Below are positions 2 through 25,711 of a DNA stretch of 64,000 nt, piece by piece (positions within the stretch are counted from its first letter, which is position 1; each line of letters opens with the position of its first letter). Where the stretch lies: contig CAYPDT010000001.1 in the NCBI GenBank assembly GCA_964409615.1, positions 243,880-307,879 on the forward strand. The letters are read 5' to 3'. Source of the stretch: an uncultured Candidatus Saccharibacteria bacterium. GTDB lineage: Bacteria; Patescibacteriota; Saccharimonadia; Saccharimonadales; AWTP1-31. The translations under genes were made by a program, and so were the position numbers. Below the pieces are notes generated by a model. The model worked only from the letters and a program-made list of their open reading frames with translations. It was not told where the DNA came from and ran no database searches.

Positions 2-1531
2 CTAACCCGTAACTCTTCGGTGCTTGGAACTTCCGAGCTAGCTGCGCTGTACCACTTTCCTTACGGGGAGCATATGCAGTCAGAAGATATGGTTAAGTCA
101 GTGGCAAAAACACTGCCAGCCCCATTGTCTATGAAGAATCACGCTAATGCTGCCGACTACGATATTGTTCTAGGAACTAATAATCACCATGGTAGCCGCA
201 CCGCTATTGGCTTAACGGCCAAGGAACGAGAAAAGCATGTCTATCTCATTGGTGGTACTGGCAACGGCAAGACCACCATGCTGGAGTACGCGTTACTCCA
301 AGACATCAAGGCCGGTAAGGGCGTGGCTTTTATTGACCCCCATGGTGATGCTGCCCAAAAGCTTCTTAAGTACATCCCCGAGGAGCGCATTAAGGATGTG
401 GTCTACTTAAACCCTCGAGATATTAAGCACCCGATTGGCCTCAATCTCCTGGAGCTACCTGAGGGACTCGACGAAGATGAACTGCTGGTCGAACAGGAGC
501 GTGTGACTGAAGCGGTTGTGTCAGTACTACGGAAAGTCTTTGCCGATGATGATGCTAATGCCCACCGCATCGAAGGCATGCTCCGCAATACCATTAGGAC
601 GGCGTTTAGCACTGAAAACCCGACATTATTTACCTGTTTAGAGCTACTGCGTAACGGTGAGTTTCGCAATAAAGTGGTGGCAAAACTCACAGACGCACAC
701 CTAAAAGACTTCTGGCGAGAAGAGTTTGGTAAAGCTGGCGGCATGCAACGGGTAAGTATGACAAAAGGACTAACTCACCGCTTAGATCGTTTTGATGGTT
801 CGCAGTTCGTAAACCGTATGATGAGTCAAACGAAATCTACCATTAGCTTCGAGGATATTATTGACACTGGGAAGATCCTTATCTGTAACTTTAGTACTGA
901 CATGGGTGAAGATACCGCAACGTTGTTTGGTACAACTGTATTGGCTAAACTCAAGATTGCCGCCGAACGACGCCACAACCAGCCCGAAGCTCAGCGTAAG
1001 CCCTTTTACGTTTACGTAGATGAGTTCCAGAACTTTGCGACTACGCCGTTTGTGAAGATGCTGTCTGCTTCACGCAAATACAAGCTATTCTTAACCATTG
1101 CCGAACAATCTGCCGCTCAACAGGAAGAACAACGCTTAACGGAAGCGATCCTGGCCAACGTCAGTACAATTGTGTGCTTTGGATTGGGCAGCCCATTCGA
1201 TGAGCGGTTGTTGCTTGGCCGGTATGAACCTTGGCTTGAGAAAGGCAATTTACTCAACCAACCGGCTTACAACTTTTATCTACGAGTAAAGGCCGAGGAG
1301 CCAATGGAGCCGGTTTCCGGGGAGACTATAGTACTAGATAGTGCGGAAGGCAGTGAACGACGTGCTGAAGAGGTCATATCAGCCTCCAGAGAGAACTATG
1401 CGGTTGAATGGAAAAGTTATATGCCCAGCAGGGCAAAGGACGCCTCCAAACAACCCGACGTCAAAGTAGCTAACAGTAGGGAGGGTGCTGAGAAGAGTGT
1501 AGATTTTCAAGCTAGAGCGCTGGATGCTTAA
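2..1531 (+). CDS. Type IV secretion coupling-protein-like ATPase (TraG/TraD/VirD4 family), 5' end cut by window edge
   Basis: The reading frame is open from nt 2. Walker A is GGTGNGKTT and a Walker-B-like segment is FYVYVDEFQNF. Size and layout match conjugative coupling ATPases. Confidence 0.6.
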   Translation, partial: LTRNSSVLGTSELAALYHFPYGEHMQSEDMVKSVAKTLPAPLSMKNHANAADYDIVLGTNNHHGSRTAIGLTAKEREKHVYLIGGTGNGKTTMLEYALLQDIKAGKGVAFIDPHGDAAQKLLKYIPEERIKDVVYLNPRDIKHPIGLNLLELPEGLDEDELLVEQERVTEAVVSVLRKVFADDDANAHRIEGMLRNTIRTAFSTENPTLFTCLELLRNGEFRNKVVAKLTDAHLKDFWREEFGKAGGMQRVSMTKGLTHRLDRFDGSQFVNRMMSQTKSTISFEDIIDTGKILICNFSTDMGEDTATLFGTTVLAKLKIAAERRHNQPEAQRKPFYVYVDEFQNFATTPFVKMLSASRKYKLFLTIAEQSAAQQEEQRLTEAILANVSTIVCFGLGSPFDERLLLGRYEPWLEKGNLLNQPAYNFYLRVKAEEPMEPVSGETIVLDSAEGSERRAEEVISASRENYAVEWKSYMPSRAKDASKQPDVKVANSREGAEKSVDFQARALDA

Positions 1532-1600: not shown

Positions 1601-3076
1601 CTAGTTCCGTTTAGCGGCGATAGAGTAGCCGATGGCAGACAAACCAAGTAGTGTGGCGATAACCACGCCAAGTAGAGATACTGAATTGATGCCGGTGTTT
1701 GGTGCGGCAGCATTAGTGCCAGCATTTGCATTGGTGGTTGTAGCTGAGCAGACAGCACCTTCGAATTGGTAGGCACCAACAGATGGACAAGAATTACGGG
1801 CTACACCACGAGCATCGGTAGATATGCCTAAGACCTGACCACCGGCGTTAATTGCCGGACTACCTGCCAATAAGGCCATGGTTGGTACAACACCACCATT
1901 GTCCTGCAGCGGGCCGAGAGTGCTGAAAAGATTGGCAAGATTTTGTTGGTCGCCGGGTTGGGTAAAGGTGGTACACGTACTATCGTCGGATAAATTATGG
2001 CCGTCGGAAATAATCCCGGTAGTAACCGTGCCTGTCAGGCCACCAAATGCCGCATTACCATTTAATTCAGCACAGTTGGACGATACATTATCGCTGATAT
2101 TATTGGTGAGCAGGCTATTTTCGACGTTCATAGTAACGGACGAGGTGTGCGGTGTCGCCGCTGCTCCACCGGTGAAGAAGGCCACTGAATTTTCACCAAT
2201 CGAACCAGTACTTCCGTCAAGTCCGACAACTGTTACGTTTTTTACAATCACACTGATGGTGGTATCACCGCTCAACGCCGCACCAATGCTTCCAAATCCT
2301 AGCGCTGCTGCAGAAGCAGTTATGTTATTAATAGTTGTATTGTAGACATTTGCATTTACCGTGCCGGTTCCGGCTATTAGGACAAAGAAGGCTCCGGCAT
2401 CGCCAGCAGAGTTATGTATATTTGCTACCGTAGTATTCTGTATATTGGCCGTAGGTGTAGAGGTATTAAAGGCATATACCCCACTAGTTGCCGCGGCGTC
2501 TAGATCATGAATATAGACGTTATTAGCTGTCGTGGTAACATTGGCCGCTGCGGAGTTGCCCAGTTCCACACCCTTTAATTGGTTCCCCGTTGGCAGGGCG
2601 TTAGTGCCATCTATTTCAATGTTTGATAGTGTCACACTGCCATTGGTGCTGATAATTCCTTGCCCAAGATAGCTGGCTATTTTCAAGTCCTGGACAGTAA
2701 CGACAGCCGTAGAACTGTTGATGCGAATTGTGCGATATTGCCCAGCATTTCCATCAATTGTCGTCTGGCTCATCCCAGCTCCCTGGATCTTGACCGACAC
2801 CGATATTGTCGGTGAATCTGCTGTTAACGTCTGCGTGCCTGCAGGTATGGTAATGGTGTCATTGGTTCCATAGCCGTCTGGTGAGACTGTAGCTGTGCAG
2901 CCGGATTGATTAGAACCGGCATTAACCGAGTCAATCGCGATTGGCAGGGTACAGCCACCGGTGACGTTAAGGGTTGCCGCATGCGCCCGACCGGAACCAG
3001 AAGCAAGCACCGCCAGGAAGGCGAATGTTGCGAGGATTAGTTTGTTTGTTTTTGTTAGATTCAGAATACTGATCAT
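1601..3076 (-). CDS. Sortase-anchored surface protein, beta-helix-like repeats, APNTG sorting signal (paralog 1)
   Basis: Signal peptide (..GSGRAHA/ATLNV) followed by a G/N/T-rich repeat core. The C-terminal module is GHNLSDDSTC..DARGVAR..GAYQFEG (choice-of-anchor-Q-like). It ends with APNTG, a hydrophobic helix and a KRN tail. Confidence 0.75.
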   Translation of the reverse strand: MISILNLTKTNKLILATFAFLAVLASGSGRAHAATLNVTGGCTLPIAIDSVNAGSNQSGCTATVSPDGYGTNDTITIPAGTQTLTADSPTISVSVKIQGAGMSQTTIDGNAGQYRTIRINSSTAVVTVQDLKIASYLGQGIISTNGSVTLSNIEIDGTNALPTGNQLKGVELGNSAAANVTTTANNVYIHDLDAAATSGVYAFNTSTPTANIQNTTVANIHNSAGDAGAFFVLIAGTGTVNANVYNTTINNITASAAALGFGSIGAALSGDTTISVIVKNVTVVGLDGSTGSIGENSVAFFTGGAAATPHTSSVTMNVENSLLTNNISDNVSSNCAELNGNAAFGGLTGTVTTGIISDGHNLSDDSTCTTFTQPGDQQNLANLFSTLGPLQDNGGVVPTMALLAGSPAINAGGQVLGISTDARGVARNSCPSVGAYQFEGAVCSATTTNANAGTNAAAPNTGINSVSLLGVVIATLLGLSAIGYSIAAKRN

Positions 3077-3114
3077 GGAGTAATTCCTTTATACATCGTT
3101 TTAGCTTTACCGGT

Positions 3115-3143
3115 ATTCTACCCCCCCCTGAGATACAAAGCAA
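3115..3143 (-). promoter_or_regulatory. Putative sigma70-type promoter TTGCTT-N17-TAGAAT with a G8 tract in the spacer
   Basis: Read on the minus strand, -35 is at 3138-3143 and -10 at 3115-3120. The spacer is 9 nt plus G8 (3121-3128 on the plus strand as C8). Confidence 0.45.
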
Positions 3144-3294
3144 GAAACTAGCTCTAAAGATCATCACTGAGTATCTCCGAGACATCTACGTGGCGTTGGC
3201 AGTCTTCGATACTCCGTCAAGCCAAGGTGATGGCGAGGATTCGCTCAAAGTCAGTCTGTGCTGCAGCCAAGTCTTCATCATAAGTTACCAATAA

Positions 3295-3981
3295 TCACGA
3301 CTGTGCTTCGGCGACAACTATCACTCGAGAATCGTAAGTTTTGCTGGCCTTGTCGAATCTACCAGTACAGGTTATCAAGTTAAGTTGCTTTGCAATGGTA
3401 TTGTGACGGACAAACAGCGCCGTATCGGCTTCTTTAGTAGTAACCCTCTGCACTTTCCTGATTTTGAACCTACGGACACTTTTATCACCGAAAGTTACGG
3501 TAAAGGCATCACCGGCTTTTAGCCTACCAAGGCTATAGAATATCCCTTTGGCGTACAGCCCATGTACATGCCCGTCAATAATACTGAGGCCAGCATCACC
3601 AGGCAAGGAGCCCTTGGTGTACCAGCCAGCCATATTAACATTACTAGGGACTACCATCTGGTTATCTTTGTCTACGCCTACTTGCTGAATAAAGCCTTCT
3701 GTTTTGATAGTTGGCAGCTGAATGGATAGTGGCTTATCTGCTGGGACACTGTAATTATCTGGTACTGGCTGTTCGCTGGGAGTGTCGGTGGATTCTGTTG
3801 CTACGGTGTGTCCAGTCGGTACACCGGCATGTTGAATGAAGTACCAGTTTCGTATTGCATTCAGGCCAACGCCAACAAGTAATATGCCTACTATGAATAA
3901 CGCAAAGCGAATATTTCGTTGATTCTTAGAGACTGCTCCACGCTTTGATAATCTATTGCTACGCTTCTTGTGCCGAACCAT
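3295..3981 (-). CDS. Sortase (class E/F-like transpeptidase)
   Basis: N-terminal basic segment plus one TM helix. Conserved His (IIDGHVHG), catalytic Cys motif LITCTG, and conserved Arg (SRVIVVA). Confidence 0.8.
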   Translation of the reverse strand: MVRHKKRSNRLSKRGAVSKNQRNIRFALFIVGILLVGVGLNAIRNWYFIQHAGVPTGHTVATESTDTPSEQPVPDNYSVPADKPLSIQLPTIKTEGFIQQVGVDKDNQMVVPSNVNMAGWYTKGSLPGDAGLSIIDGHVHGLYAKGIFYSLGRLKAGDAFTVTFGDKSVRRFKIRKVQRVTTKEADTALFVRHNTIAKQLNLITCTGRFDKASKTYDSRVIVVAEAQS

Positions 3982-3996
3982 AGGTACTAATATAGA

Positions 3997-5475
3997 CTAG
4001 CTCGAGCGTTGTTGCTTGCGGAATACGTATGTTAGTAGTCCAATGCCAAGCATGCTGGCAAGTACATTGAGTATTTGTGCTATAGATCCAACACCCGTGT
4101 TTGGAGCTCCTGCGTTACTACCGCCAGATGCAGATGGAGTAGAAGCACCGCAGACAGCACCTTCGAATTGGTAGGCACCTACAGATGAGCATTCATCTGG
4201 GCGTGCTACGCCACGGGCGTCAGTGGTGACACCTAGAACTTGTCCACCAGCAGCGATAGCTGGAGAACCTGGCAAAAGAGCTCGTGTTGGAACTGCTCCG
4301 CCGTTATTCTGGAGTGGACCGAGAGTGGATAGTATGTTGCTGACATTTTGCTGATCACCTGATTGGTTGAAGGATGAGCAGCTGTCATCGTCTGAAATGT
4401 TATGGCCGAACGATAGAAGTGATAGATTCACTGTGCCCGGGCTACTGAACGTCGTGAGTGTACAGTTGGCAGCTGAGCCCATATGCGTATTACCCGCTAA
4501 TAGCGCATTGCCAACTGACAACGTTACACTTGCAGTTCTCGCATTCCCCGCCATACCACCAACGAATAAGGCGCTACTAGTCTGGCCATACTGCCCTAGC
4601 GCGGCCCCCGCGACATTAGTTACTGTTATATTTTGGAGTACGGTACTGAATACTGAATCACTACTATTTGCTCCACCTACATTTGCGAATCCAATCGCTG
4701 TATGCGCAGCCTCTAGGTTATCGATCGTAGTATTTACAATGCGAGAATTGACGGTACCGACTCCCATTACAAGAAATCCAAATACATCTCCACCACTGTT
4801 CGTGAGATTTGAGATAGTGGTATTCGATATGTCTATGGTACTTGATAAGCCATCTTGCAATTGAGTCTGAATACCGTGGACTATCCCTGATGTTGATGCT
4901 AAGTCATGAATGTATAGGTTATTGGTAGTTATACTATTGTCAACACCTTGGCTGTTCCCTAGCCACAATCCCCAGAGGGGTCCGCTATCAGGCTGAGCTT
5001 CGCCACCATCCACCTCAATATTTTCGAGCGTGAGAGCCCCTCCGTCATTCCATATACCTGCCCCAAAAAACTCTACAATGGTCATACCCTTTAATCTGAT
5101 ATTATCATTCGGGCTTTCAATATTAAAAGGTGCGTACAGTCCACTATCACCACTGATTACGGTCTGTCCCATACCTGCCCCCTGGATAGTCACCGATTCG
5201 GTTATGGCAGGCAAATCTGCTGTCAACGTAATCGTCCCCGCAGGAATAGTAATTGTATCGTTCGTGCCGTACCCACTAGGAGATACCGCGGCCGTACAAC
5301 CAGATTGGTTGGCACCTGCATTCACCGAATTAATAGCAATAGGAAGCGTACATCCGCCCGTGACGTTAAGGGTCGCTGCATGCGCCCGACCCGAACCAAA
5401 GGCAAGCACTGCCAAGAAGACGAAAGCTGCCAGGACTAGTTTGTTTGTTTTTGTCAGGTTCAGAATATTGAGCAT
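3997..5475 (-). CDS. Sortase-anchored surface protein, beta-helix-like repeats, APNTG sorting signal (paralog 2)
   Basis: The N-terminal ~90 aa and C-terminal ~130 aa are near-identical to the 1601..3076 product, while the core is divergent. It ends with APNTG, a hydrophobic helix and an RKQQRSS tail. Confidence 0.75.
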   Translation of the reverse strand: MLNILNLTKTNKLVLAAFVFLAVLAFGSGRAHAATLNVTGGCTLPIAINSVNAGANQSGCTAAVSPSGYGTNDTITIPAGTITLTADLPAITESVTIQGAGMGQTVISGDSGLYAPFNIESPNDNIRLKGMTIVEFFGAGIWNDGGALTLENIEVDGGEAQPDSGPLWGLWLGNSQGVDNSITTNNLYIHDLASTSGIVHGIQTQLQDGLSSTIDISNTTISNLTNSGGDVFGFLVMGVGTVNSRIVNTTIDNLEAAHTAIGFANVGGANSSDSVFSTVLQNITVTNVAGAALGQYGQTSSALFVGGMAGNARTASVTLSVGNALLAGNTHMGSAANCTLTTFSSPGTVNLSLLSFGHNISDDDSCSSFNQSGDQQNVSNILSTLGPLQNNGGAVPTRALLPGSPAIAAGGQVLGVTTDARGVARPDECSSVGAYQFEGAVCGASTPSASGGSNAGAPNTGVGSIAQILNVLASMLGIGLLTYVFRKQQRSS

Positions 5476-13367: not shown

Positions 13368-15620
13368 TTATACTTCTTTGCGAGCAGCGTATAGCTTGTG
13401 CAAGATTGCACCGACCATACTTGTTGCAGCGAAGATGCCGAAGATGTTGCCTGCACCAGTGTTTGGAAGCACTGTTGGAGGAGTTACAGTTGGAGGAGTA
13501 GTGGTAGTCTTGATTGTTACAGGAGCTGCACACTTGTCGCTCTCAACGGTTTTGTTCTCGCCATTGACATCGAAGGTTACTACTGCGCGAGTCACAAACG
13601 TACCATCTTTGGTGTAGGTGTGCTCAGCAGTTTGCTTGTTTGTCATGAACTTGTCGCTACCATCGCCGTAGTCGAAGGTTGCAAACTTGTAGTTAGCGCC
13701 ATTGTTGGCAGTAACTTTGATAGTGTAGCGATATTGCTTTTCACCAATCTTTTCAGCGGTCAGTAGGTCACAGCTATATACAGGAGTTACAGGCTTTGGA
13801 GCAATCTCGATTTGAGTTGCACATGCAGCTGATGTAGCAGTCTTGTCTACGCCGTTTACCGTAAAGGTAACAGTAGCAGTAACATTGTATGTACCATCTT
13901 TGGTGTAGGTGTGCTCAGCAGTTGGGCTGCCAGTAGTTACACCAGTACCATCGCCGTAGTTGTAAGCAACATTCTTGAAAGTTGCGCCGTTACGAGCAGT
14001 ATAGGTTGTAGTGAAACGGTACTTGTTCTCGCCAATCTTGTTAGTTGTAAGCAAGTCACAGCTATAGATAGGGGTAGGAACATTTACTGTTGCGTCATCA
14101 CAATCGTCTTCATCATTCGGGTTGTTAGGGTTAACTTCTGGAGCGTTGACACATGCTGTGTTAACGATATCACCAGCGACTTCTGCAGTTACCTTAGCGC
14201 GGATGTTGATGTTTACAGAAGCACCAACTGCAAGCGCAGGAATGGTATAGGTAAGCTTGTTACCTTCGATAGAACCTTTATCGGTGCTGATGAACTGTAC
14301 GTTTGCAGGAGCGTTGTCGCTAACCTTCACGTTTGTCAGTGCAACATCACCAGTGTTCTTAACAACCAACTGGTAGGTAAATTCTTGGTTTACACCAACA
14401 GTCTTCTTCTCGACGCCATCAACTTTTTTGTCGATGCTTACACCAGGATTCTTAGGTGTTGGGTTACAGTTGTCTTTCTTAATCTTAACATCTGCATAGT
14501 CTTGGATTTCTGGGTACTGTCGTGATGCAACGAATGCTAAGTTACGGACGGTAACTTCACACTCTGCAAAGTCATCTTTAGCAATTGTATCGAAGCGGAT
14601 GTTGAAACCTGAGTTTGGCTGTAGTACGCCGACACCAATACCACCGGTAGTGAATAGCGGGCCATCTTGCTGAACTACATCTTGTGGAGCAGAGTCAATG
14701 TAACGGACAGAACCCGAAACAAGCTGCATGTGTGGAGGAAGCTGATCGCTTACTGCAACGTCATCAAGCTTAGCAGTACCAAGGTTGTTTACGCGCAGAC
14801 CCCATTGGATTTTGTCACCAGGCTTTACTTCAGTTGACTTGCCGTAAGCAGCGTTAACGCCTGCCTTACGGACCATCTTCTCAAGCTTTAGTTCAGGTGT
14901 CTTAATGCGGACACGAATTTCTACGCTTGCCTGGTAGTCGAAACAGCCAGGGAAATCACCATTAATGTTGTCGTAGCCAACTTGTACCCCGTTACCGACG
15001 ATTCCATCACTTAGCTTATAGCCACCAGCTGATGCTGGGTGTGCAGCCGTGTAAAGGATAGCTGAACCAGGTACGTATTCTACAGAGAATGGAGTACCGT
15101 CAATAAGTTCGGTTGTGTCAGTTACTTCGCCAGCGTAGCCTGGAGCTGGGTTGTCCCAGTTGATGTAGCTACGTGCACGTAGTTCGGTAGCAGTACCAGT
15201 AGGAAGATCGATCCGAATACGAGTATTCTTAGCGATGCCAAGGCCACTTGCATTAGTGTCTTGGTTAGCATTGTTGTGAATGTACGAGCGAAGAATAACT
15301 TCTTTAGTACCCTGGGTTGGGTAACTTGTTACATCTTTGAACGCGTTAACGCCGTCGGCTTGGTCAGTTCGTGCTGAGTCAAAGAACGCACGTTCGTCGC
15401 CATAATATGGAGTGTTAACAAATGAGTTAAACACTGGGCCATTCAAAGAACCTTTGCGTTGATCAGGATTGTTCCAGTCAAAGGTTGGTCGGTTTGCTGG
15501 GCTAAAGCCGGCAAACGTAAGTGCGCTCGTTAGTACGATGCCTGTGGCAACGAGGCCAGCAAGGACTTTAGTCTTCACACTTGTTGGGCGAAGCTTTTTG
15601 ATGATATTTCGTAATTTCAT
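13368..15620 (-). CDS. Sortase-anchored surface protein with DUF11-like and PKD-like repeats, LPNTG signal
   Basis: Signal peptide, a DUF11-like region (VKNTGDVALTNVKVSD) and two PKD-like repeats (..YGDG..EHTYTKDGT..). It ends with LPNTG, a hydrophobic helix and an ARKEV tail. Confidence 0.8.
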   Translation of the reverse strand: MKLRNIIKKLRPTSVKTKVLAGLVATGIVLTSALTFAGFSPANRPTFDWNNPDQRKGSLNGPVFNSFVNTPYYGDERAFFDSARTDQADGVNAFKDVTSYPTQGTKEVILRSYIHNNANQDTNASGLGIAKNTRIRIDLPTGTATELRARSYINWDNPAPGYAGEVTDTTELIDGTPFSVEYVPGSAILYTAAHPASAGGYKLSDGIVGNGVQVGYDNINGDFPGCFDYQASVEIRVRIKTPELKLEKMVRKAGVNAAYGKSTEVKPGDKIQWGLRVNNLGTAKLDDVAVSDQLPPHMQLVSGSVRYIDSAPQDVVQQDGPLFTTGGIGVGVLQPNSGFNIRFDTIAKDDFAECEVTVRNLAFVASRQYPEIQDYADVKIKKDNCNPTPKNPGVSIDKKVDGVEKKTVGVNQEFTYQLVVKNTGDVALTNVKVSDNAPANVQFISTDKGSIEGNKLTYTIPALAVGASVNINIRAKVTAEVAGDIVNTACVNAPEVNPNNPNDEDDCDDATVNVPTPIYSCDLLTTNKIGENKYRFTTTYTARNGATFKNVAYNYGDGTGVTTGSPTAEHTYTKDGTYNVTATVTFTVNGVDKTATSAACATQIEIAPKPVTPVYSCDLLTAEKIGEKQYRYTIKVTANNGANYKFATFDYGDGSDKFMTNKQTAEHTYTKDGTFVTRAVVTFDVNGENKTVESDKCAAPVTIKTTTTPPTVTPPTVLPNTGAGNIFGIFAATSMVGAILHKLYAARKEV
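13497..14072 (-). repeat. Two tandem 288-nt (96-aa) PKD-like coding repeats
   Basis: Both units begin P[I/V]YSCDLLT.. and contain YGDG..TAEHTYTKDGT. Boundaries were counted from the C-terminus of the ORF translation. Confidence 0.7.
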
Positions 15621-16996: not shown

Positions 16997-19195
16997 TTAG
17001 TTCTTTGATGCCAGCAATTTAGCCTTTGGGAAGGTAAAACCAAAGGTGCTACCTTTGCCCTCTTCGCTCTTGAAAATAATTGCCCCACCCTGGGCAATAA
17101 TGACTTTTTTAGCCATGAACAACCCTAGTCCGGTACCATCTGGGCGAGCTTTCTTGGCATTACCTGCCCGGAAGAACTTGGTGAACAGATGGTGCTGCTC
17201 GGCTTTCGGAACACCCAGACCATCGTCAACTACGGTATATTCAATAGAATCACCCTTATCTTCTAGATTAAGCTGTATATGCCCCCCTGCCGGGGTGTAA
17301 TGCAAGGCGTTATCGGCGAAGTTCATAATTACCTGGCGAATCTTAGTTTCGTCGAGCATTAATTCGGGGAAGTTCTCTGGCTTAGTAAAGGTGAGGGTCT
17401 GATTTTTACTCTTAGCCACCTCTGTTAACTGCTCCATTTCAGATGACACCACCTCTGTTAGCTGCGTTGGCTTGTTCTCTATTACAAACTTACCACTACG
17501 CAAGCGAGAGACGTTTAACAGGTCGGCAATCAGATAAACCATACGCTGCGAGCTAGCAAAAGCCTGGTTTAGCAGTTCTTGCTGCTGCTTGGTTAGCTTG
17601 CCAGCGTCGCCCTCTACAACCATACTCACATAGCCTTTCACCGCTGTTAATGGTGTCCGTAGCTGATGAGAAGCCATACTAATAAACTCGTCTTTAGTTT
17701 CGTCTAGTGCCTTTAGTTTCTCATTGGTCTGACGTAACTGACGAGTAGCATCATCGACTTTTTGTTGCAGGGTGATGTTAAATGTCTCAATCTCTTCGAA
17801 ACGAAGAGCGTTTTGGATAGCAATCACCAGCTCATTCGCAATAATATCCAACACCTGTAAGTCTTGTTTGTTATAGGCATTTCCACTCTGTTTTGCGCCC
17901 ATAAGCATGTAGCCGATTTCTTGCGATGACTTGTCGGCGAGAGCCAATTTAGATGCAATAGCCACCCCACTCTGGTTGAGTGTAGTCTTGAGAGCAGCCT
18001 GATTTTCCTCTAGCTCATCCGTTACTACGATGGTCGTCTTGCCTTTAATACGCTCACCAATAGATAGAATGCCATCCTCATCGATATCTCGCTTGCGCGA
18101 GAGTACAACACGTCTAGCTGTATTTTCGGTTTTTCTGATGATAAAACCAGAGTATTCGGCCTTCAGGGTGCTACTTATCAGGTCTGCTGACTGCTTGAGC
18201 AATATGTCGAGGTTAATATTACCCACCAGCATCTTATTAAGCTTATCCAGCAGGTCCTGAGCATCATATGCATCCCTATAGAACAATCTGTTAGTAATAC
18301 GGTCAAAGAAGCGCTTGAGCGGTGCAAGACTGAAACCAAAAATAAGGGTGGCAAGTATATACAATGCTTGCTGTAAACCAGTTAAGTTACCGGAGCCAAA
18401 CACGTTGCTCGACAGTCCAAAAATGGCTAATACATATGCCCCTACAAGAGTAGTTAAGGTTAAGATGTAGCCCACAGATCGAGCAACAATTAGGCGGATA
18501 TCAAACAACCCCTGTTTTAATAGTGAATACACCGTTAAAGAGATGAAGTATATCGGTGCCATGTAGCCAACAACATATAACGCAGTCTGATCACCCAGTA
18601 TTTGGGGCAATAGCACTATAAATACAGTGGCATGCACAATAGTAAGTGTTAGCCCACTCAAAAGAGTTACTGTTTGTCGACGAAGTGCGACATCCTTACT
18701 CCTGCGGATAATTTCGATGTCATTGAAGTAAACACTGACCAGCACTAAGATTACAAAAACTCCAATTATCGCAGCTAACGGGCCAGGACTGTAAACAAAC
18801 TTATCACTCTTAATAATGAATTCACCGGCCACAATTTTATAGGGCGATAGAATTGCGCTTATAGCGCCAAAGCCCACAATAGACTTCTGTACAGTTGTCA
18901 TCCTCTTTTTCTCTGGGTAATACAGAGTAAATAAATAAATTTCTAGTAATACTAGGCTCCCCAGAAAATATCCGAGCCTGTTTAATACTCCGAAGAGAGT
19001 CGCGTACGAAACATTGGCATTGTCTACAAATGCAAGTGCGCCGTTAACAATTGTCCAGGTAAGTGTAGAAAGCGTAACAACGGCGAATAGTCGTTGATCA
19101 ATCCTACGAGTCGCTCTACCTTCAAGGAATAGCAATAGCCCTACTGCCAGCTGGCAGACAGCCACAATACCTAGCAGAGCAATTGCAAACTTCAT
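16997..19195 (-). CDS. Sensor histidine kinase with multi-TM N-terminal domain
   Basis: About 8 N-terminal TM helices. H-box SMASHQLRTPLT, N-box NFADNALHYTP, G1 DDGLGVP, G2 GTGLGLFMAKKV. Confidence 0.85.
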   Translation of the reverse strand: MKFAIALLGIVAVCQLAVGLLLFLEGRATRRIDQRLFAVVTLSTLTWTIVNGALAFVDNANVSYATLFGVLNRLGYFLGSLVLLEIYLFTLYYPEKKRMTTVQKSIVGFGAISAILSPYKIVAGEFIIKSDKFVYSPGPLAAIIGVFVILVLVSVYFNDIEIIRRSKDVALRRQTVTLLSGLTLTIVHATVFIVLLPQILGDQTALYVVGYMAPIYFISLTVYSLLKQGLFDIRLIVARSVGYILTLTTLVGAYVLAIFGLSSNVFGSGNLTGLQQALYILATLIFGFSLAPLKRFFDRITNRLFYRDAYDAQDLLDKLNKMLVGNINLDILLKQSADLISSTLKAEYSGFIIRKTENTARRVVLSRKRDIDEDGILSIGERIKGKTTIVVTDELEENQAALKTTLNQSGVAIASKLALADKSSQEIGYMLMGAKQSGNAYNKQDLQVLDIIANELVIAIQNALRFEEIETFNITLQQKVDDATRQLRQTNEKLKALDETKDEFISMASHQLRTPLTAVKGYVSMVVEGDAGKLTKQQQELLNQAFASSQRMVYLIADLLNVSRLRSGKFVIENKPTQLTEVVSSEMEQLTEVAKSKNQTLTFTKPENFPELMLDETKIRQVIMNFADNALHYTPAGGHIQLNLEDKGDSIEYTVVDDGLGVPKAEQHHLFTKFFRAGNAKKARPDGTGLGLFMAKKVIIAQGGAIIFKSEEGKGSTFGFTFPKAKLLASKN

Positions 19196-19260: not shown

Positions 19261-20091
19261 TTACAGATGAACTTCTGGAGCACCAAAGACGGCTAGGTCT
19301 CTAAAGATAGCCAAGTTGTGCGCATTGCTTGGAATAGCTACAGGAGCGTACTTATCGTCAAATTGTACTTCACCAACTGTAGGTGTCTTCAAACCAGGTA
19401 CGCCAGCAATATCTTCGTATTCAACACCAAGCCCACCGAGTGACTTGATAGCAGGTGTGTTAAGGTGAGCAAAAATCATCAATTCACCTTCATCTAGCTG
19501 ACCACGTTCTACGTGATTGAATAATGCAAGATAACCTACATCAGATATTCGTAAACCATTATAAGGTTCTGTCTCTTTGATACGGAAGTTGGTTTCGACA
19601 CTGATACTTCGCTCAAGTCGTGTGCCATTTTTTGCATAAAAGTCAGCAAATTGTGCACCGTCAAGACCTTGGCCTGACAGTACAATATCATCGATAAATG
19701 GCATGCCAGTCAACTGAACTTGCTCACCATTAACATCGGTTGCCATCTCGGTTGAACCGCCTTCTGATCGCCCTGAGAATCTGAAAGCATGAACTAATTC
19801 TTGCCTGCCATCTCGCATATCAGCAATTGCAAGGAAGAGGCAAAGGCCTTCGTAACTAGCAACAATTTCGGGTATTTCAGGGAACTTCTTGGCTTCTTCA
19901 TTCTTGACTAAGTCAACATGAGGACTATCAGGACTTAACCATACAGAATAAAGGTCGCCTTGGTCACCCTGAGATTCACGGATAGCATCAAAGAACTGAG
20001 CTTCTCGTTCTACAACTTGTTCAGGGGTTAAATGATAAGGGTCGAATCCTGGTGTCATACCATCGCTTGGTCGCACATCAACTAAACTCAT
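19261..20091 (-). CDS. Hypothetical protein, co-operonic with pdaD
   Basis: 276-aa ORF starting 3 nt after the pdaD stop. I recognised no motif. Confidence 0.5.
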   Translation of the reverse strand: MSLVDVRPSDGMTPGFDPYHLTPEQVVEREAQFFDAIRESQGDQGDLYSVWLSPDSPHVDLVKNEEAKKFPEIPEIVASYEGLCLFLAIADMRDGRQELVHAFRFSGRSEGGSTEMATDVNGEQVQLTGMPFIDDIVLSGQGLDGAQFADFYAKNGTRLERSISVETNFRIKETEPYNGLRISDVGYLALFNHVERGQLDEGELMIFAHLNTPAIKSLGGLGVEYEDIAGVPGLKTPTVGEVQFDDKYAPVAIPSNAHNLAIFRDLAVFGAPEVHL

Positions 20092-20094
20092 GAT

Positions 20095-20610
20095 TTACTC
20101 CTTGTCTCCTTCCAGTAAAACTGGCTTATTTTCCCAATCGCTCGCCTGGTAAACTGCAACTGCAAAAGCACAAATTGGCTTGTCTTTACAGACACCACCA
20201 ACAACGGTCATGTTGATTTTGCCAAAGTCTACACCACGGGTTTTCATTAGGTCTTTGAGGCTATTTTCGATATCTTGGCGAACTTGCTGCTCGCTATTAC
20301 CTTCGTGTTCTACAAACAGACCTTTGCCGTCAGTTTCGTCTTGCACCCAGCCAATTCCAGCCCAGGCTTCTTCGTTGTGGGTACTGGTACGCTGTTCGGC
20401 ATACACTACATATAGTCGGTCTCCCCAGCCACCAATAGTGTTCTGGATAGGCCCGTCCACGCACTCAACCTGGGTGTTTGGGGGGATAACTGAACTTAAT
20501 CGAATAAGATTACGGTCGCAAACACCGGTTGCATATAACGCGGCATCAAACGCACCGAGCTGTGTTGTACCTTCTTTTACTGCCGTCGAAACCTGAATTT
20601 TCATAATCAC
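20095..20610 (-). CDS. pdaD: Pyruvoyl-dependent arginine decarboxylase
   Basis: About 170 aa with the self-cleavage Ser-Ser context NLIRLSSVIPP. Length and overall pattern match the PdaD family. Confidence 0.75.
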   Translation of the reverse strand: MIMKIQVSTAVKEGTTQLGAFDAALYATGVCDRNLIRLSSVIPPNTQVECVDGPIQNTIGGWGDRLYVVYAEQRTSTHNEEAWAGIGWVQDETDGKGLFVEHEGNSEQQVRQDIENSLKDLMKTRGVDFGKINMTVVGGVCKDKPICAFAVAVYQASDWENKPVLLEGDKE

Positions 20611-20739: not shown

Positions 20740-21624
20740 CTATATTTTAAGGGCTTCTTCTTGTTCTTCATTGGCCCGATTAACTTTACGCTTACCCCAA
20801 TTATAGACTGCCGGGATACTTGCCACACCAAGGATTGCCCCTCCAACTGTTTGTAAACTTGGGCTTTCTATTCCTTGATCAAGCAACCACCCCTGCACGG
20901 CACAAACACCAGCCAACGCTGCAGAGGTTTTAAGCCCGTATTCGGCATTCTCGCGGAACGTGCGCTCCTCTGTTGCCTCTCTATCTCTTATAAACACTGA
21001 TACTGCAGTGCCGCCAAGGAAAGCTGCAGCGGCCTTTATGCCGCCATTAACTTTTGCACCTTCGTGTAGCCCAACTTTGTTCAAGCCCTTATTTAGCAGA
21101 GCCCGAGAACGTTTTGCACCGCCACGTGATAACACGTCAGCTGTTGCCAAGCCTGCTAGCCCTTCAATAATAAAGGTAGCTGCACCATATATAGCACCAA
21201 CAAGTGCAGATTTGCCATCTAGTGCTGTTGCCGCCATGCCTAGCACGGCAAACCTCAGCGCTTCGTTAAATGGTGTGACCTCAAGGCCGATAATTCCTGC
21301 TTCTGAACCGCTACGAGTCGCGGATAGAACTCGCCGACCTATTCTTCGCCAGCGTGATACTTCTTGTTGTGTATCTGCTTCTATGGCAGCCGGGGCTTCG
21401 ATACTAAACAGTGGTGATGTTGCTACATCTATCGATTCGATATTTTGCTCACTTGGCAGACCGTGTAGCAAAGGACCTTCGTAAAAGCCATTCTCATTTA
21501 CAAGAGCTGAGTTACTATTTTCAACCAAATCTTGACCAACCAAGAAACGTGCTACAGCGCTATACTCTGTCTCGTTGAGGGGTGGTTGTATAATGTTTGG
21601 ACTAATGGCTGATAATTCTGTCAT
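20740..21624 (-). CDS. Hypothetical membrane protein (Gly/Ala-rich TM helices)
   Basis: Long ORF with a soluble N-terminal third followed by several G/A-rich hydrophobic segments. Confidence 0.5.
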   Translation of the reverse strand: MTELSAISPNIIQPPLNETEYSAVARFLVGQDLVENSNSALVNENGFYEGPLLHGLPSEQNIESIDVATSPLFSIEAPAAIEADTQQEVSRWRRIGRRVLSATRSGSEAGIIGLEVTPFNEALRFAVLGMAATALDGKSALVGAIYGAATFIIEGLAGLATADVLSRGGAKRSRALLNKGLNKVGLHEGAKVNGGIKAAAAFLGGTAVSVFIRDREATEERTFRENAEYGLKTSAALAGVCAVQGWLLDQGIESPSLQTVGGAILGVASIPAVYNWGKRKVNRANEEQEEALKI

Positions 21625-21764: not shown

Positions 21765-22139
21765 ATGATAACCATCGCCGTCGTAGAAGACGACCATCCA
21801 ATCGCCCAGATGTATCAGTTCAAGTTAGAGTCGGCGGGCTTTAAAACAGCCGTTGCCCACGATGGTGAACAGGGCTTGAAGGTCATCGAAGAAGTACGAC
21901 CTGATTTAATCTTGCTCGACCTGCGCATGCCTGTCATGACTGGCGACGAAATGCTGGAAAAGCTACGACAAACAGAATGGGGTAGTAGTATTCGAGTAAT
22001 TATCCTGACCAACATTAGCAAAAATGAGGCACCGCACGGTCTGCGATTCTTGAATGTAGACCGCTACGTAGTAAAGGCGCATCACACGCCACAACAGGTT
22101 GTGGATATCATAAAAGAAGTGCTTCGACTACCACGTTAG
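21765..22139 (+). CDS. Single-domain response regulator (receiver only), copy 1
   Basis: CheY-like: acidic pair EDD, phospho-acceptor LLDLRMP, conserved T (ILTN) and K (VVKAHHTP). No output domain. Confidence 0.85.
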   Translation: MITIAVVEDDHPIAQMYQFKLESAGFKTAVAHDGEQGLKVIEEVRPDLILLDLRMPVMTGDEMLEKLRQTEWGSSIRVIILTNISKNEAPHGLRFLNVDRYVVKAHHTPQQVVDIIKEVLRLPR

Positions 22140-22203: not shown

Positions 22204-22608
22204 GTGCGCAAAAAAATAACCATCATCGAAGACGACAAATCTATAGCAAAAATGTACCAGTTCAAGCTGGAAAATGAGGGCTTTGATATCGAAGTTGCCC
22301 ACTCCGGACCAGCCGGATTGCATCTGGTACGCAATACTCGCCCCAACCTCATATTACTCGACTTGCGACTACCACATATGAACGGCGATGAAGTACTGCA
22401 CCACATCCGCCAGCATGAATGGGGCAAGGCCATTAAGGTGATGATTATGGCAAATGTCAGCCGAGTACATGCTCCTAAACGACTAGAGACGCTGGAGTTC
22501 GATAAATATCTGATTAAAGCTCACCATACACCTGGGCAAGTAGCCGACATTATTAACGACTTGCTCAGCCAACCTTCAGCTTCGCATAGTAGTTACTACA
22601 GTAAGTAG
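22204..22608 (+). CDS. Single-domain response regulator (receiver only), copy 2
   Basis: GTG start. Contains IIEDD, LLDLRLP and LIKAHHTP. Paralog of copy 1 with a short S-rich tail. Confidence 0.85.
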   Translation: MRKKITIIEDDKSIAKMYQFKLENEGFDIEVAHSGPAGLHLVRNTRPNLILLDLRLPHMNGDEVLHHIRQHEWGKAIKVMIMANVSRVHAPKRLETLEFDKYLIKAHHTPGQVADIINDLLSQPSASHSSYYSK

Positions 22609-22668
22609 CTAAACAAAGATACCGGTACTGTATTGTGTTTACGCCTAACTTACACTACTATTCTTTAT

Positions 22669-23043
22669 ATGGCGGCAGTAAAAGTTGCAATCATCGAAGA
22701 CGACCAGGCCATCAGCCAGATGTATCGCATCAAGTTCCAGGCTGAAGGTTTTGACGTAGATACAGCCGAGAACGGCAAGCTGGGTCTTGAGCTGTGTGAA
22801 AAAATGCGTCCCGACATCATCTTGCTCGACCTCATGATGCCCGAGATGACTGGCGACCAGATGTTACTTGAACTGCGTAAAACTACTTGGGGTGCAAAGA
22901 CCAAGGTAGTTATTCTTACTAATATGGGTGAGCAAGAAATTCCTGAATCAGTCAAAAACCAAGGTGTTAGTGCCGTTATTCTAAAAGCCGACATGACCCC
23001 TCGTCAGGTCGCCGAACTCGTCAAGAAAACAATTGATAGCTAA
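22669..23043 (+). CDS. Single-domain response regulator (receiver only), copy 3
   Basis: Start placed at MAAVKVAIIEDD. Contains LLDLMMP, ILTN and ILKADMTP. Confidence 0.85.
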   Translation: MAAVKVAIIEDDQAISQMYRIKFQAEGFDVDTAENGKLGLELCEKMRPDIILLDLMMPEMTGDQMLLELRKTTWGAKTKVVILTNMGEQEIPESVKNQGVSAVILKADMTPRQVAELVKKTIDS

Positions 23044-23084: not shown

Positions 23085-24416
23085 ATGAGAATTGCTGTTA
23101 TAGGCTATGGCAAACAGGGCCAGGCCGCTGTCGAATATTGGGGTAAAGATAATGATGTTACGGTCTGTGATCAGAACGAACATCTTGAATTACCCGATGG
23201 CGTTGAAGCCCAGCTAGGGCCCGGCTATTTGGACGACCTCGACCGTTTTCATCTGATAGTCCGCTCCCCTGTTATACACCCTCGAGACATTGCCGAAGCT
23301 AACGGTGAACGCATTCTGAAAAAGGTTACCACTGTCACCGAAGAGTTTTTCCGTGTCTGCCCTGCCAACATTATCGGAGTAACTGGTACTAAAGGTAAAG
23401 GAACCACCTCTTCACTCATCGCTAAAATACTAGAAGCCGGCGGGCACCGCGTTCACTTGGGTGGCAACATCGGCATTGCGCCACTTGAAATGCTGAAGTG
23501 GAATATTAAACCCACCGATTGGGTTGTATTGGAGTTGGCGAACTTCCAGCTGATCGACCTCGGTGTATCACCAACCATTGCCGTCTGCTTAATGGTCGCG
23601 CCTGAACACTTGGACTGGCATAAAGACATGGCCGAATACGTTGGCTCTAAACAGAATTTATTCCGTCACCAAGGGCCAGATGACCTGACAATCTTTAATC
23701 GTCTGAGCGATTTTTCGGGTGAAGTTGCCGAAGTATCTCCTGCCCTCAAGATTTCCTACGAAGTACCGCCGTTACACCAAGAACCCGAAGAGAAAAATGG
23801 CGCCTATGTGCTTGGTGATGATATCTATATGGATGATGAGCGAGTTTGTGGAGTTAGTGAAGTTAATCTGCTGGGTCGGCACAACCTCGAAAATGTCTGT
23901 GCCGCTATTGCCGCTACCTGGGAACTAATCGACCACAATCCTAAAGCTGTTTCTAAAGCTCTTAGTACGTTTGTCGGGTTACCACACCGGCTTGAATTTG
24001 TTCGTGAACTCGATGGAATAAAGTACTATAACGATTCATTTGCTGCCACACCCCAGGCATCTGTGGCAGCTATGCACGCCATACCTGGCCCCAAAGTTGT
24101 CATTGCCGGCGGCTACGACAGAGGTCTTGACCTTTCGGTATTTGCCGAAGGCGCTACAAGCCCCGATGCACAGGTGCAACACATGCTCCTCATCGGTCAA
24201 ACCGCTCCCAAGATTGCCGAAGCGCTTACTAAAGCCAATTTTAGTGCATTTACCATCTTAGGTGCTACTGACATGAAAACCATTATTAACACTGCTCGAG
24301 AGACCGCCTCTTCTGGCCAAGCAGTGGTACTGTCTCCTGGCTGTGCTAGTTTTGATATGTTCAAGAACTTCGAAGACCGCGGCTTGCAATTCAAGGCCGG
24401 AGTTGACGCATTATGA
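23085..24416 (+). CDS. murD: UDP-N-acetylmuramoyl-L-alanine--glutamate ligase (MurD family)
   Basis: Mur ligase ATP site GVTGTKGKGTT, an N-terminal Rossmann-like MRIAVIGYGKQG, and a C-terminal HRLE motif (LPHRLEFV). Confidence 0.85.
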   Translation: MRIAVIGYGKQGQAAVEYWGKDNDVTVCDQNEHLELPDGVEAQLGPGYLDDLDRFHLIVRSPVIHPRDIAEANGERILKKVTTVTEEFFRVCPANIIGVTGTKGKGTTSSLIAKILEAGGHRVHLGGNIGIAPLEMLKWNIKPTDWVVLELANFQLIDLGVSPTIAVCLMVAPEHLDWHKDMAEYVGSKQNLFRHQGPDDLTIFNRLSDFSGEVAEVSPALKISYEVPPLHQEPEEKNGAYVLGDDIYMDDERVCGVSEVNLLGRHNLENVCAAIAATWELIDHNPKAVSKALSTFVGLPHRLEFVRELDGIKYYNDSFAATPQASVAAMHAIPGPKVVIAGGYDRGLDLSVFAEGATSPDAQVQHMLLIGQTAPKIAEALTKANFSAFTILGATDMKTIINTARETASSGQAVVLSPGCASFDMFKNFEDRGLQFKAGVDAL

Positions 24417-25711
24417 ACAATGCCCCAACCTACAAAGCCTTTATTTTTAAAGGCTACAATTTCGATGCCACTACTAAAACCTTAAAACTTAGCTATGGTT
24501 TTGATGATGCATATAGCTTCACCGAAGAATACCGCTTCAATTTCGACCTCCGACCGCATGACCAGCAGGTGCTAGACCGAGCCATCCAGTCGCTTTTCTT
24601 TATGGCTGGCGTCTCATACTACAAGGCATTTCCAGTCGAAGCTATCCGTATAGATCAAGGCAAAATCGACCGCAAAGATGCCGACTTCTTTGCCAAAACG
24701 TATCAGCGTGGCCTCGGAGAGTATTACTACATCAACAAGATGAATCCGCGCAGCGAAGTTCCTTTTATTGCCAATACCACCGACCAGCTTGCTATCCATC
24801 ATAACCATGGCACAGGTGCCGTCATCGGCATCGGCGGGGGTAAAGACTCGCTCGTGAGCGCCGAACTACTGCGGAATCGGCCCGACTTTGCAACCTGGAG
24901 CCTTGGCCATCGCAGCCAACTAGAACCCCTGATCAAGCGCATTGGCATGCCTCACTTCTGGGTAGAGCGAACCCTCGACCCCCAAATTATTGGACTCAGT
25001 GCGAAAGGCGCCCTAGGCGGGCACATACCTATTTCGGCAATCTTTGGCTGTGTCGGCAGTATCGTAGCCATATTAAGCGGCCACCGCGATAGCATTGTAT
25101 CCAACGAAAACTCCTCAAACGAGCCAACATTGCACTACGACGGCGTAGCGATAAACCACCAGTATTCTAAGTCATTGGAGTATGAAAAAGACTATCAAGC
25201 TTACCTTGCTCGACATTTTGATGATACTGTTCGATATTACTCATTTTTACGACCCTTTAGTGAAGTAAAAATTGCAGAACTATTTGCCCAGTTAGGCTTC
25301 GAAAAATACAAAGATGTCTTTAGTTCGTGCAACCGTGCCTTCGTGCAGGGCAGCAACCAAATCAGCTGGTGTGGACAATGCAGCAAGTGCGCCTTTACAT
25401 TCTTAGCACTCAGCCCTTTTATCTCTCACACTGAGCTTGAAAAGTTATGGCACAAAAACTTACTACTCGACCCTACTCTAGTTACAACTTACCAGAACCT
25501 TCTTGGCATCAGTGGCGACAAACCCCTGGACTGTGTTGGCGAAATCAAAGAATCACGAGCTGCTATGCAAATAGCCCAAAAAGACTACCCGGGCCTCAGT
25601 TACGAATTCGACATTCCAGCCGACTACAGTTACAAAAACCTAGCCGACCACAGCATGCCACCCGAAATGTATGCCGTACTTACAGACTATCTTGCAAGTA
25701 GTGAAAGCTAA
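24413..25711 (+). CDS. PP-loop-like ATP-binding protein, candidate MurL-type UDP-MurNAc-L-Ala-L-Glu epimerase
   Basis: Its ATG overlaps the murD stop (ATGA). It carries a PP-loop-like motif GIGGGKDSLVSAELL and a Cys cluster SWCGQCSKCAFTF. The ~430-aa size matches the reported MurL. The assignment is inferential. Confidence 0.45.
   Translation: MNNAPTYKAFIFKGYNFDATTKTLKLSYGFDDAYSFTEEYRFNFDLRPHDQQVLDRAIQSLFFMAGVSYYKAFPVEAIRIDQGKIDRKDADFFAKTYQRGLGEYYYINKMNPRSEVPFIANTTDQLAIHHNHGTGAVIGIGGGKDSLVSAELLRNRPDFATWSLGHRSQLEPLIKRIGMPHFWVERTLDPQIIGLSAKGALGGHIPISAIFGCVGSIVAILSGHRDSIVSNENSSNEPTLHYDGVAINHQYSKSLEYEKDYQAYLARHFDDTVRYYSFLRPFSEVKIAELFAQLGFEKYKDVFSSCNRAFVQGSNQISWCGQCSKCAFTFLALSPFISHTELEKLWHKNLLLDPTLVTTYQNLLGISGDKPLDCVGEIKESRAAMQIAQKDYPGLSYEFDIPADYSYKNLADHSMPPEMYAVLTDYLASSES

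Follow-up and report, generated by a model that had tools for sequence, protein, structure and literature searches.

In a 64-kb stretch of a Candidatus Saccharibacteria contig (CAYPDT010000001.1, positions 243,880 to 307,879; hereafter, the window), a murD gene and the open reading frame (ORF) that overlaps its stop codon form a gene pair that we interpret as a functional L-glutamate (L-Glu) ligase and an ATP-dependent epimerase, MurL. Together, the two enzymes would constitute a two-step alternative D-glutamate (D-Glu) branch of peptidoglycan precursor synthesis, equivalent to the MurD2/MurL route described in Xanthomonas oryzae. Judging from the sequences, we estimate the probability of this reading at roughly 80%. 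It is supported by the homology of the second protein to MurL, by the linkage of MurL to MurD across genomes, by a MurD2-type residue signature in the ligase, and by the PP-loop fold predicted for MurL. The elements of the gene pair are as follows.

23085-24416, + strand: murD ORF, 443 aa; a MurD-family ligase, of the MurD2 (L-Glu-adding) type by residue signature.
24413-25711, + strand: murL ORF, 432 aa; a MurL homologue.
24413-24416, + strand: ATGA, read from the sequence, in which the murL start codon lies over the murD stop codon TGA (4-nt overlap).
24399-24402, + strand: GGAG, a Shine-Dalgarno-like element located 10 nt upstream of the murL ATG, within the 3' end of murD, and presumed to function as such.

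An earlier note on this DNA had delineated both ORFs and the ATGA, had pointed out two motifs in the 432-aa ORF, GIGGGKDS and CGQCSKC, and had proposed the MurD2/MurL route from the size of that ORF, its ATP-binding motif, and its tight coupling to murD. The ORFs and the ATGA at 24413-24416 proved exact, with the TGA of murD overlapping the ATG of the next ORF, and both motifs are present, at residues 139-146 and 320-326, respectively. The proposed similarity to MurL was also borne out by a profile search, in which the 432-aa ORF matched NF041275, a curated MurL profile, over residues 6-387 (profile positions 6-392 of 447; E=2.1e-97, 326.5 bits). This was its sole NCBIfam match. Similarly, the precomputed Pfam annotation of the identical protein in four metagenome contigs consists of PF26299 (MurL_N) and PF26298 (MurL_epimerase_C), and the same two domains are carried by all of its closest homologues (120/120). 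A local Pfam scan of the ORF returned only a spurious 'Coiled' match (E=0.28), the Pfam copy used being one without the MurL models.

The score of window MurL is lower than the equivalog cutoff of NF041275, which is set at 700 bits. The MurLs of Micromonospora (400-416 bits) and of a Lysobacterales metagenome-assembled genome (MAG; 488 bits) are also under 700 bits on this Xanthomonadales-specific model; therefore, the cutoff separates clades, not functions. Window MurL is 36% identical to Micromonospora MurL over residues 9-391, and the MurD2/MurL orthologues of one Micromonospora strain have been confirmed in vitro (PMC8788868). The whole MurL family amounts to 2309 clusters at 50% clustering (E≤1e-3). 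All close homologues of the window protein come from Candidatus Saccharibacteria/Saccharimonadales (Patescibacteria, or candidate phyla radiation (CPR)). By profile similarity, the 432-aa ORF is a MurL homologue.

In a scan of one genome per GTDB species with the MurL alignment, at least 594 loci gave a match, of which the best 80 were retained. These 80 loci included CPR lineages (Saccharibacteria, Parcubacteria, Gracilibacteria, Peribacteria, Uhrbacteria, and Falkowbacteria), Proteobacteria (many Alphaproteobacteria, Methylomonas, Marinicella, and Lysobacterales), Micromonospora, Plantactinospora, and Symbioplanes, and others (Sericytochromatia, Chloroflexia, Dormibacterota, Bacteroidota, and Bacillota). 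A MurD homologue adjoins MurL in 74 of the 80 loci; those without such a neighbour are mostly short contigs. The order is murD→murL in Saccharibacteria and murL→murD in Proteobacteria and the majority of the other lineages, and a third, divergent arrangement is seen in Micromonosporaceae. The 4-nt ATGA/GTGA overlap is kept in 22 of 24 non-redundant murD→murL loci, a count that leaves out four same-species contigs (L001-L004); the remaining two are a locus with a 1-nt overlap and a Parcubacteria fusion. Single-polypeptide fusions occur in Parcubacteria, Peribacteria, Falkowbacteria, and a Bacillota MAG (loci L021, L043, L060, and L063), and fused proteins were found in both orders, as MurD-MurL (P0124, P0128, and P0139) and as MurL-MurD (P0141, P0154, P0164, and P0202), with both halves confirmed by NCBIfam. 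In Saccharibacteria, conservation covers murD-murL but does not extend to the genes that follow murL.

The upstream partner is a member of the MurD family. It scored 327.5 bits over its full length against TIGR01087 (cutoff 212), it carries the Pfam domains Mur_ligase_M and Mur_ligase_C in the three-domain organization of Mur ligases, and among solved structures its best match is to S. agalactiae MurD (3LK7, E=1.6e-57). The following motifs in window MurD bear on its activity and substrate.

23376-23408, + strand: GVTGTKGKGTT, the Mur-ligase ATP-binding P-loop (residues 98-108), which aligns with GSNGK(S/T)T of solved MurDs.
23598-23609, + strand: APEH, in which E174 corresponds to E. coli D182 and X. 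oryzae MurD2 E197, and H175 to the catalytic H183.
24030-24050, + strand: NDSFAAT, with F319 in place of the Lys of canonical DSKATN (E. coli K319).
24108-24125, + strand: GGYDRG, in which R346 corresponds to E. coli K348 and X. oryzae MurD2 R358.

Four positions are reported to distinguish X. oryzae MurD2 from E. coli MurD (PMC8788868). In E. coli MurD, X. oryzae MurD2, and window MurD, respectively, they are occupied as follows.

D182, E197, E174
K348, R358, R346
A414, P433, A421
L416, F435, F423

The E197D/R358K double mutant of X. oryzae MurD2 becomes a D-Glu ligase, the P433A and F435L mutations leave its stereospecificity unaffected, and K319T enables E. coli MurD to accept L-Glu (PMC8788868). 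The MurD2 features called for by the proposed route were found in window MurD, which has the full set: E174 and R346 at the two positions that switch stereospecificity, and F319 at the position where K319 is lost. F423 at the 416 position is also X. oryzae-like, but positions 414 and 416 carry little weight, because mutations there are without effect on stereospecificity.

To place these residues in context, window MurD, E. coli MurD, and 70 MurL-linked MurDs were aligned with MAFFT, and HMMER alignments to solved MurDs were used alongside. Glu and Arg at the determinant positions were found in 58 of the 70 MurL-linked MurDs. K319 is kept in none of the 70, being replaced by F, I, L, or Y, and the Micromonospora and Lysobacterales proteins show the same pattern. 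By contrast, the lysine of DSK(A/S/G)T is kept in all six canonical MurDs, namely E. coli MurD and five solved-MurD alignments (S. agalactiae, A. baumannii, P. aeruginosa, and T. maritima), and the canonical MurDs compared have D or T at position 182. A minority of MurL-linked MurDs, including those of Peribacteria, Gracilibacteria, and a Parcubacteria fusion, keep the Asp at the E. coli D182 position (L021, L022, L024, L025, L046, L054, L060, L061, L063, L065, L068, L073, and L076; all without K319), and two divergent Saccharibacteria (L068 and L076) even retain Lys at position 348. Therefore, loss of K319 together with R348 is the more general signature, and the published E/R rule does not hold for every ligase linked to MurL. 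From these residues, we infer that window MurD is of the L-Glu-adding MurD2 type.

We then consider MurL itself, in which four elements stand out.

24413-24787, + strand: N-terminal domain (about residues 1-125; Pfam MurL_N), with a three-stranded sheet and helices in the model.
24827-24850, + strand: PP-loop GIGGGKDS (residues 139-146), between strand 136-139 and helix 144-153.
25328-25390, + strand: four-Cys cluster C306-x13-C320-x2-C323-x2-C326, a putative structural Zn site of the QueC type.
25520-25543, + strand: KPLDCVGE motif with the invariant C374, a candidate acid/base for C-alpha proton exchange.

The CGQCSKC portion of the Cys cluster (residues 320-326) is encoded at 25370-25390. 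Across 39 homologues, no variation occurs at G141-S146, C306, C323, or C326, and conservation at C320 is at least 90%. The PP-loop and Cys residues stay invariant or at least 90% conserved in an alignment of 37 sequences reaching down to 30% identity, where P371, C374, V375, and E380 are invariant as well; the KPLDCVGE stretch, of the form KPxxCVGE, is specific enough to serve as a genome-scan pattern. Conservation of these motifs exceeds chance. The N-terminal domain has residues that are invariant across the family (Y28, E38, G66, Y69, K71, Y97, and G100), and possibly binds the UDP-MurNAc-peptide (MurNAc, N-acetylmuramic acid).

The full-length MurL was modelled with AlphaFold2 using 39 sequences (predicted local distance difference test score (pLDDT) 92.8, predicted template modelling score (pTM) 0.93). 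In the model, the N-terminal domain (about 125 residues) is accompanied by an alpha/beta domain. With this model, Foldseek returned asparagine synthetase (ASNS), Cap9, TtuA, and argininosuccinate synthetase near the top, but the E-values were weak, the match being diluted by the additional N-terminal domain. When residues 128-400 were modelled alone (pLDDT 88.5), the best matches were the QueC structures 2PG3 and 3BL5 (E about 7e-7, probability 1.0, template modelling score 0.64-0.69), followed by TtuA, MnmA/TrmU, GMP synthetases, LarE, argininosuccinate synthetase (ArgG), and NAD/NMN synthetases (NadE), all of which are AMP-forming PP-loop ATP pyrophosphatases. These top matches, from QueC to LarE, uphold at the fold level the guess of the earlier note that the protein is a PP-loop enzyme.

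The loop of MurL reads GGGKDS (residues 141-146), a variant of the canonical PP-loop SGGxDS in which the first Ser is replaced by Gly. It was aligned by hhalign with SGGQDS of E. coli QueC, in a single-QueC alignment that is confident for the PP-loop alone. A permissive hhalign run placed the four Cys of MurL on the C-x8-C-x2-C-x2-C cluster of E. coli QueC at a low probability, and this correspondence is suggestive only. The cluster in E. coli QueC presumably provides its zinc ligands. No match of MurL to the QueC family was found in Pfam or NCBIfam at E≤1, and hhalign against E. coli QueC gave a probability of 32-53%. MurL is QueC-like in its fold and Cys cluster, but it is not a member of the QueC family. 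A sequence search of the PDB with MurL gave no match at E≤1, and hence no structure of a MurL can be recognized there by sequence. A tRNA-modifying role for the murL product as a PP-loop enzyme was rejected, given that TilS, ThiI, MnmA, and QueC family matches are all missing and that the linkage to MurD is obligate.

MurL of X. oryzae consumes one ATP, forms AMP, acts in the L-to-D direction only, and has been described as an enzyme that 'lacks known conserved domains' (PMC8788868, PMC5808125). The predicted PP-loop fold of window MurL is consistent with this AMP-forming chemistry, which it would share with the X. oryzae enzyme. The modelled fold would also supply the missing domain assignment, and supports the adenylation mechanism proposed by the earlier authors. 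If correct, it would give a concrete structural basis to an enzyme that reviews of 2018 and 2021 described as being without known domains.

On this basis, the following scheme can be proposed. In the first step, the MurD-type ligase would add L-Glu, rather than D-Glu, onto UDP-MurNAc-L-Ala, using ATP in the acyl-phosphate mechanism usual for Mur ligases, as its residue signature suggests. In the second step, MurL would bind ATP at the PP-loop and adenylate the alpha-carboxylate of the terminal L-Glu, as expected from its homology to characterised MurL and from its predicted fold. Adenylation would acidify the C-alpha proton, which would then be exchanged from the opposite face; the invariant C374, H204, H249, and K253 are candidate bases for this exchange. 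Epimerisation would be one-way because ATP is spent. The ATGA overlap would couple translation of MurD and MurL, so that the L-Glu intermediate released by MurD would always be met by MurL.

Several observations weigh against this interpretation. The identity of window MurL to members of the validated genera is only about 35%, and its C-terminal ~45 residues differ, the alignment to the Xanthomonadales model ending at 392 of 447. In MurD, A421 at the 414 position is E. coli-like, and not the P found in X. oryzae. The Arg at 348 is also present in canonical streptococcal MurD, so Arg at this position is necessary, not diagnostic. Moreover, window MurD is nearer to canonical streptococcal MurD (198 bits) than to the actinobacterial and proteobacterial MurD2s (about 160 bits); given this overall similarity to canonical Firmicute MurD, it is the determinant residues and the link to MurL, and not its position in a phylogeny, that underpin its assignment as an L-Glu ligase. 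With regard to D-Glu supply, one observation is in favour of the interpretation: no murI, D-amino-acid transaminase, or other mur/dcw genes were found among the ~40 largest ORFs in the 64 kb, a set that takes in all ORFs of 250-310 aa. The window represents about 9% of a genome of about 0.7 Mb (~699 kb), and murI could sit in the remaining ~90%. Finally, glutamate racemase activity in Ca. Saccharimonas aalborgensis is reported in the title of Penalver et al. 2024 (doi 10.1111/1462-2920.16621; cited in PMC11974145), and therefore, going by that title, at least some Saccharibacteria would have MurI.

The title of that study, together with the inspection of 64 kb out of ~699 kb, would fit a situation in which the pair is active as MurD2/MurL but D-Glu is also obtained from MurI or from a host, making the route redundant or conditional. 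Saccharibacteria are described as epibionts of other bacteria (PMC11974145), which might supply D-Glu. However, the published carriers of MurD2/MurL are without genes for D-Glu formation (PMC8788868), and a MurD with Glu and Arg at the determinant positions and no K319 should be a poor user of D-Glu, which would leave free D-Glu without an evident way in, barring a second murD. We regard such redundancy as unlikely.

It is far less probable that MurD is a canonical D-Glu ligase and that the QueC-like PP-loop protein amidates the alpha-carboxylate of Glu via an adenylate, or takes part in an unrelated tRNA or nucleoside modification. In its fold, MurL is indeed nearest to PP-loop enzymes that amidate or thiolate, QueC among them, and amidation via an adenylate is the chemistry of QueC, NAD synthetase, and asparagine synthetase. 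In addition, window MurD exceeds the cutoff of TIGR01087, which is a D-Glu ligase equivalog, and the ~35% identity to validated MurLs leaves some room for a different function. Nevertheless, the sole family match of the 432-aa protein is MurL (E=2e-97 over 380 residues), with no QueC, TilS, or ThiI family match even at E≤1. Its pairing with MurD is obligate and extends to fusions, the MurL invariant residues are common to the Micromonospora and Lysobacterales proteins, and window MurD has the L-Glu determinants. As for incidental packing, small CPR genomes are generally known to be gene-dense, with 4-nt overlaps common, and the adjacency and overlap of murD and murL might in principle carry no functional meaning in a reduced genome. 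We give this explanation practically no credence: adjacency in 74 of 80 loci, in unrelated phyla and in three arrangements, plus the fusions, effectively refutes it, and the variable downstream neighbours of murL likewise speak against it.

A response regulator (RR) gene precedes the murD-murL pair.

22633-23043, + strand: RR3, a stand-alone receiver-domain response regulator, 41 bp upstream of murD (Pfam Response_reg in the identical contigs).

RR3 is the last of three tandem response regulator paralogues before murD (21765-22139, 22204-22608, and 22633-23043, + strand). An RR3 orthologue lies directly upstream of murD in 17 of 17 close Saccharibacteria loci (L005-L020 and L023). In those loci, RR3 is the best conserved of the three proteins, with 63-78% identity to the window, compared with 44-61% for MurD and 52-58% for MurL. 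No convincing promoter or terminator was found between RR3 and murD, and RR3 is probably in the same operon as murD. These data suggest a conserved RR-murD-murL operon in Saccharibacteria. A histidine kinase gene is encoded near the response regulators on the other strand (16997-19195). The region also contains a pyruvoyl-dependent arginine decarboxylase-like gene (20095-20610, - strand; TIGR00286, E=1e-16, below cutoff), flanked by unannotated ORFs at 19261-20091 and 20740-21624. The arginine decarboxylase-like gene recurs upstream of RR-murD-murL in loci L007, L011, L013, and L016. Locus L011 (DATJNI010000007.1) is labelled Candidatus Sulfotelmatobacter sp. (Acidobacteriota); it has the PvlArgDC-RR-RR-murD-murL order of the Saccharibacteria type, with a MurL 53% identical to that of the window, and the contig is probably mis-binned or mislabelled.

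We consider the chance that the MurD2/MurL pair is the only D-Glu source of the organism to be slightly better than even. Most CPR genomes are said to have at most one glutamate or alanine racemase; if this scarcity is right, the wide CPR distribution of MurL would matter more. A broader proposal can be put forward tentatively, its odds as a whole being somewhat short of even: most Saccharibacteria, and several further CPR lineages (Parcubacteria, Peribacteria, Gracilibacteria, Uhrbacteria, and Falkowbacteria), would obtain the D-Glu of their peptidoglycan mainly or only through MurD2/MurL rather than a racemase, MurL would be a PP-loop enzyme derived from QueC, having a metal site of four Cys and the invariant Cys374 as a base, and the pair in Saccharibacteria would be controlled by the conserved stand-alone response regulator. 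If true, this would account for the making of D-Glu without MurI in these reduced genomes. In our literature search, the only item connecting Saccharibacteria, Patescibacteria, or CPR with MurL or glutamate racemase was the citation of Penalver et al. 2024.

The characterised counterparts are X. oryzae MurD2 (XOO_1320) and MurL (XOO_1319), with orthologues in Micromonospora and Salinispora that were confirmed in vitro (Feng et al. 2017, reviewed in PMC8788868, PMC5808125). According to the published distribution, they occur in Gamma- and Alphaproteobacteria and in rare actinobacteria; orthologues of low similarity are noted in cyanobacteria, a fungus, and an amoeba (PMC8788868, PMC5808125). 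As in X. oryzae, the same two families are adjacent in the window, and MurD has Glu and Arg without K319. Unlike the X. oryzae pair, the window pair resides in a CPR/Saccharibacteria epibiont-type genome of ~0.7 Mb, a lineage outside the published distribution, and has a conserved stand-alone response regulator upstream; its 414 position is A instead of P, and the C-terminal ~45 residues of its MurL depart from the Xanthomonadales model. It also differs from the proteobacterial (murL→murD) and Micromonosporaceae (divergent) loci in its murD→murL order with the conserved 4-nt overlap.

Compared with the canonical MurD and MurI system (E. coli, Streptococcus), window MurD shares the three-domain architecture, the P-loop, the catalytic His, and the carbamylated-Lys position, but has F in place of K319 and E in place of D182. 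In addition, D-Glu is predicted to be made on the nucleotide-peptide after ligation, and not as a free amino acid beforehand. With QueC and other PP-loop pyrophosphatases, MurL would have in common the fold of residues 128-400, the PP-loop after the first strand, the C-x(n)-C-x2-C-x2-C cluster, and carboxylate adenylation with release of AMP. Unlike QueC, MurL has an extra N-terminal domain of 125 residues and shows no significant membership in that sequence family; by analogy with characterised MurL, its substrate would be UDP-muramyl dipeptide, and its reaction would lead to epimerisation, not to an amide, a nitrile, or the transfer of sulfur.

In the source databases, window MurL is named 'hypothetical protein', and members of the MurD cluster are named 'UDP-N-acetylmuramoylalanine--D-glutamate ligase'. 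The D-glutamate substrate in this annotation is probably wrong for window MurD. A MurL homologue with 69% identity is named 'endonuclease domain-containing protein' in NCBI, and a few CPR homologues are already, and correctly, named epimerase, so annotation is inconsistent. The window most likely contains a known route, with known families for which Pfam and NCBIfam models exist, in a lineage outside the published list, and no new kind of system. The new elements are the CPR distribution, the conservation of the 4-nt coupling, the fusions, the rule of K319 loss, and the QueC-like fold. Reviews of the L-Glu/epimerase route list only a few proteobacterial and actinobacterial genera, and the pair is now found in Saccharibacteria and five other CPR lineages. 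Metabolic reconstructions of CPR that score D-Glu supply by murI alone would falsely show a gap. As K319 is lost in all 70 MurL-linked MurDs, this position offers a simple way to distinguish MurD2 from MurD by sequence.

Elsewhere in the window, three class F sortase genes and two 'choice-of-anchor Q' proteins of ~490 aa, one with a parallel beta-helix, are found in the regions 1601-5475, 49200-50099, and 51885-52820 (all - strand). Taken with a DUF11-repeat protein at 13368-15620 and a mycosin-like serine protease at 52867-54798, they suggest a rich sortase-anchored surface proteome for a 0.7-Mb genome. At the edge of the window, the ORF at 20-1531 (+ strand) encodes a homologue of VirD4/TraD-like coupling proteins, with weak matches (E about 1e-15 to 1e-12).

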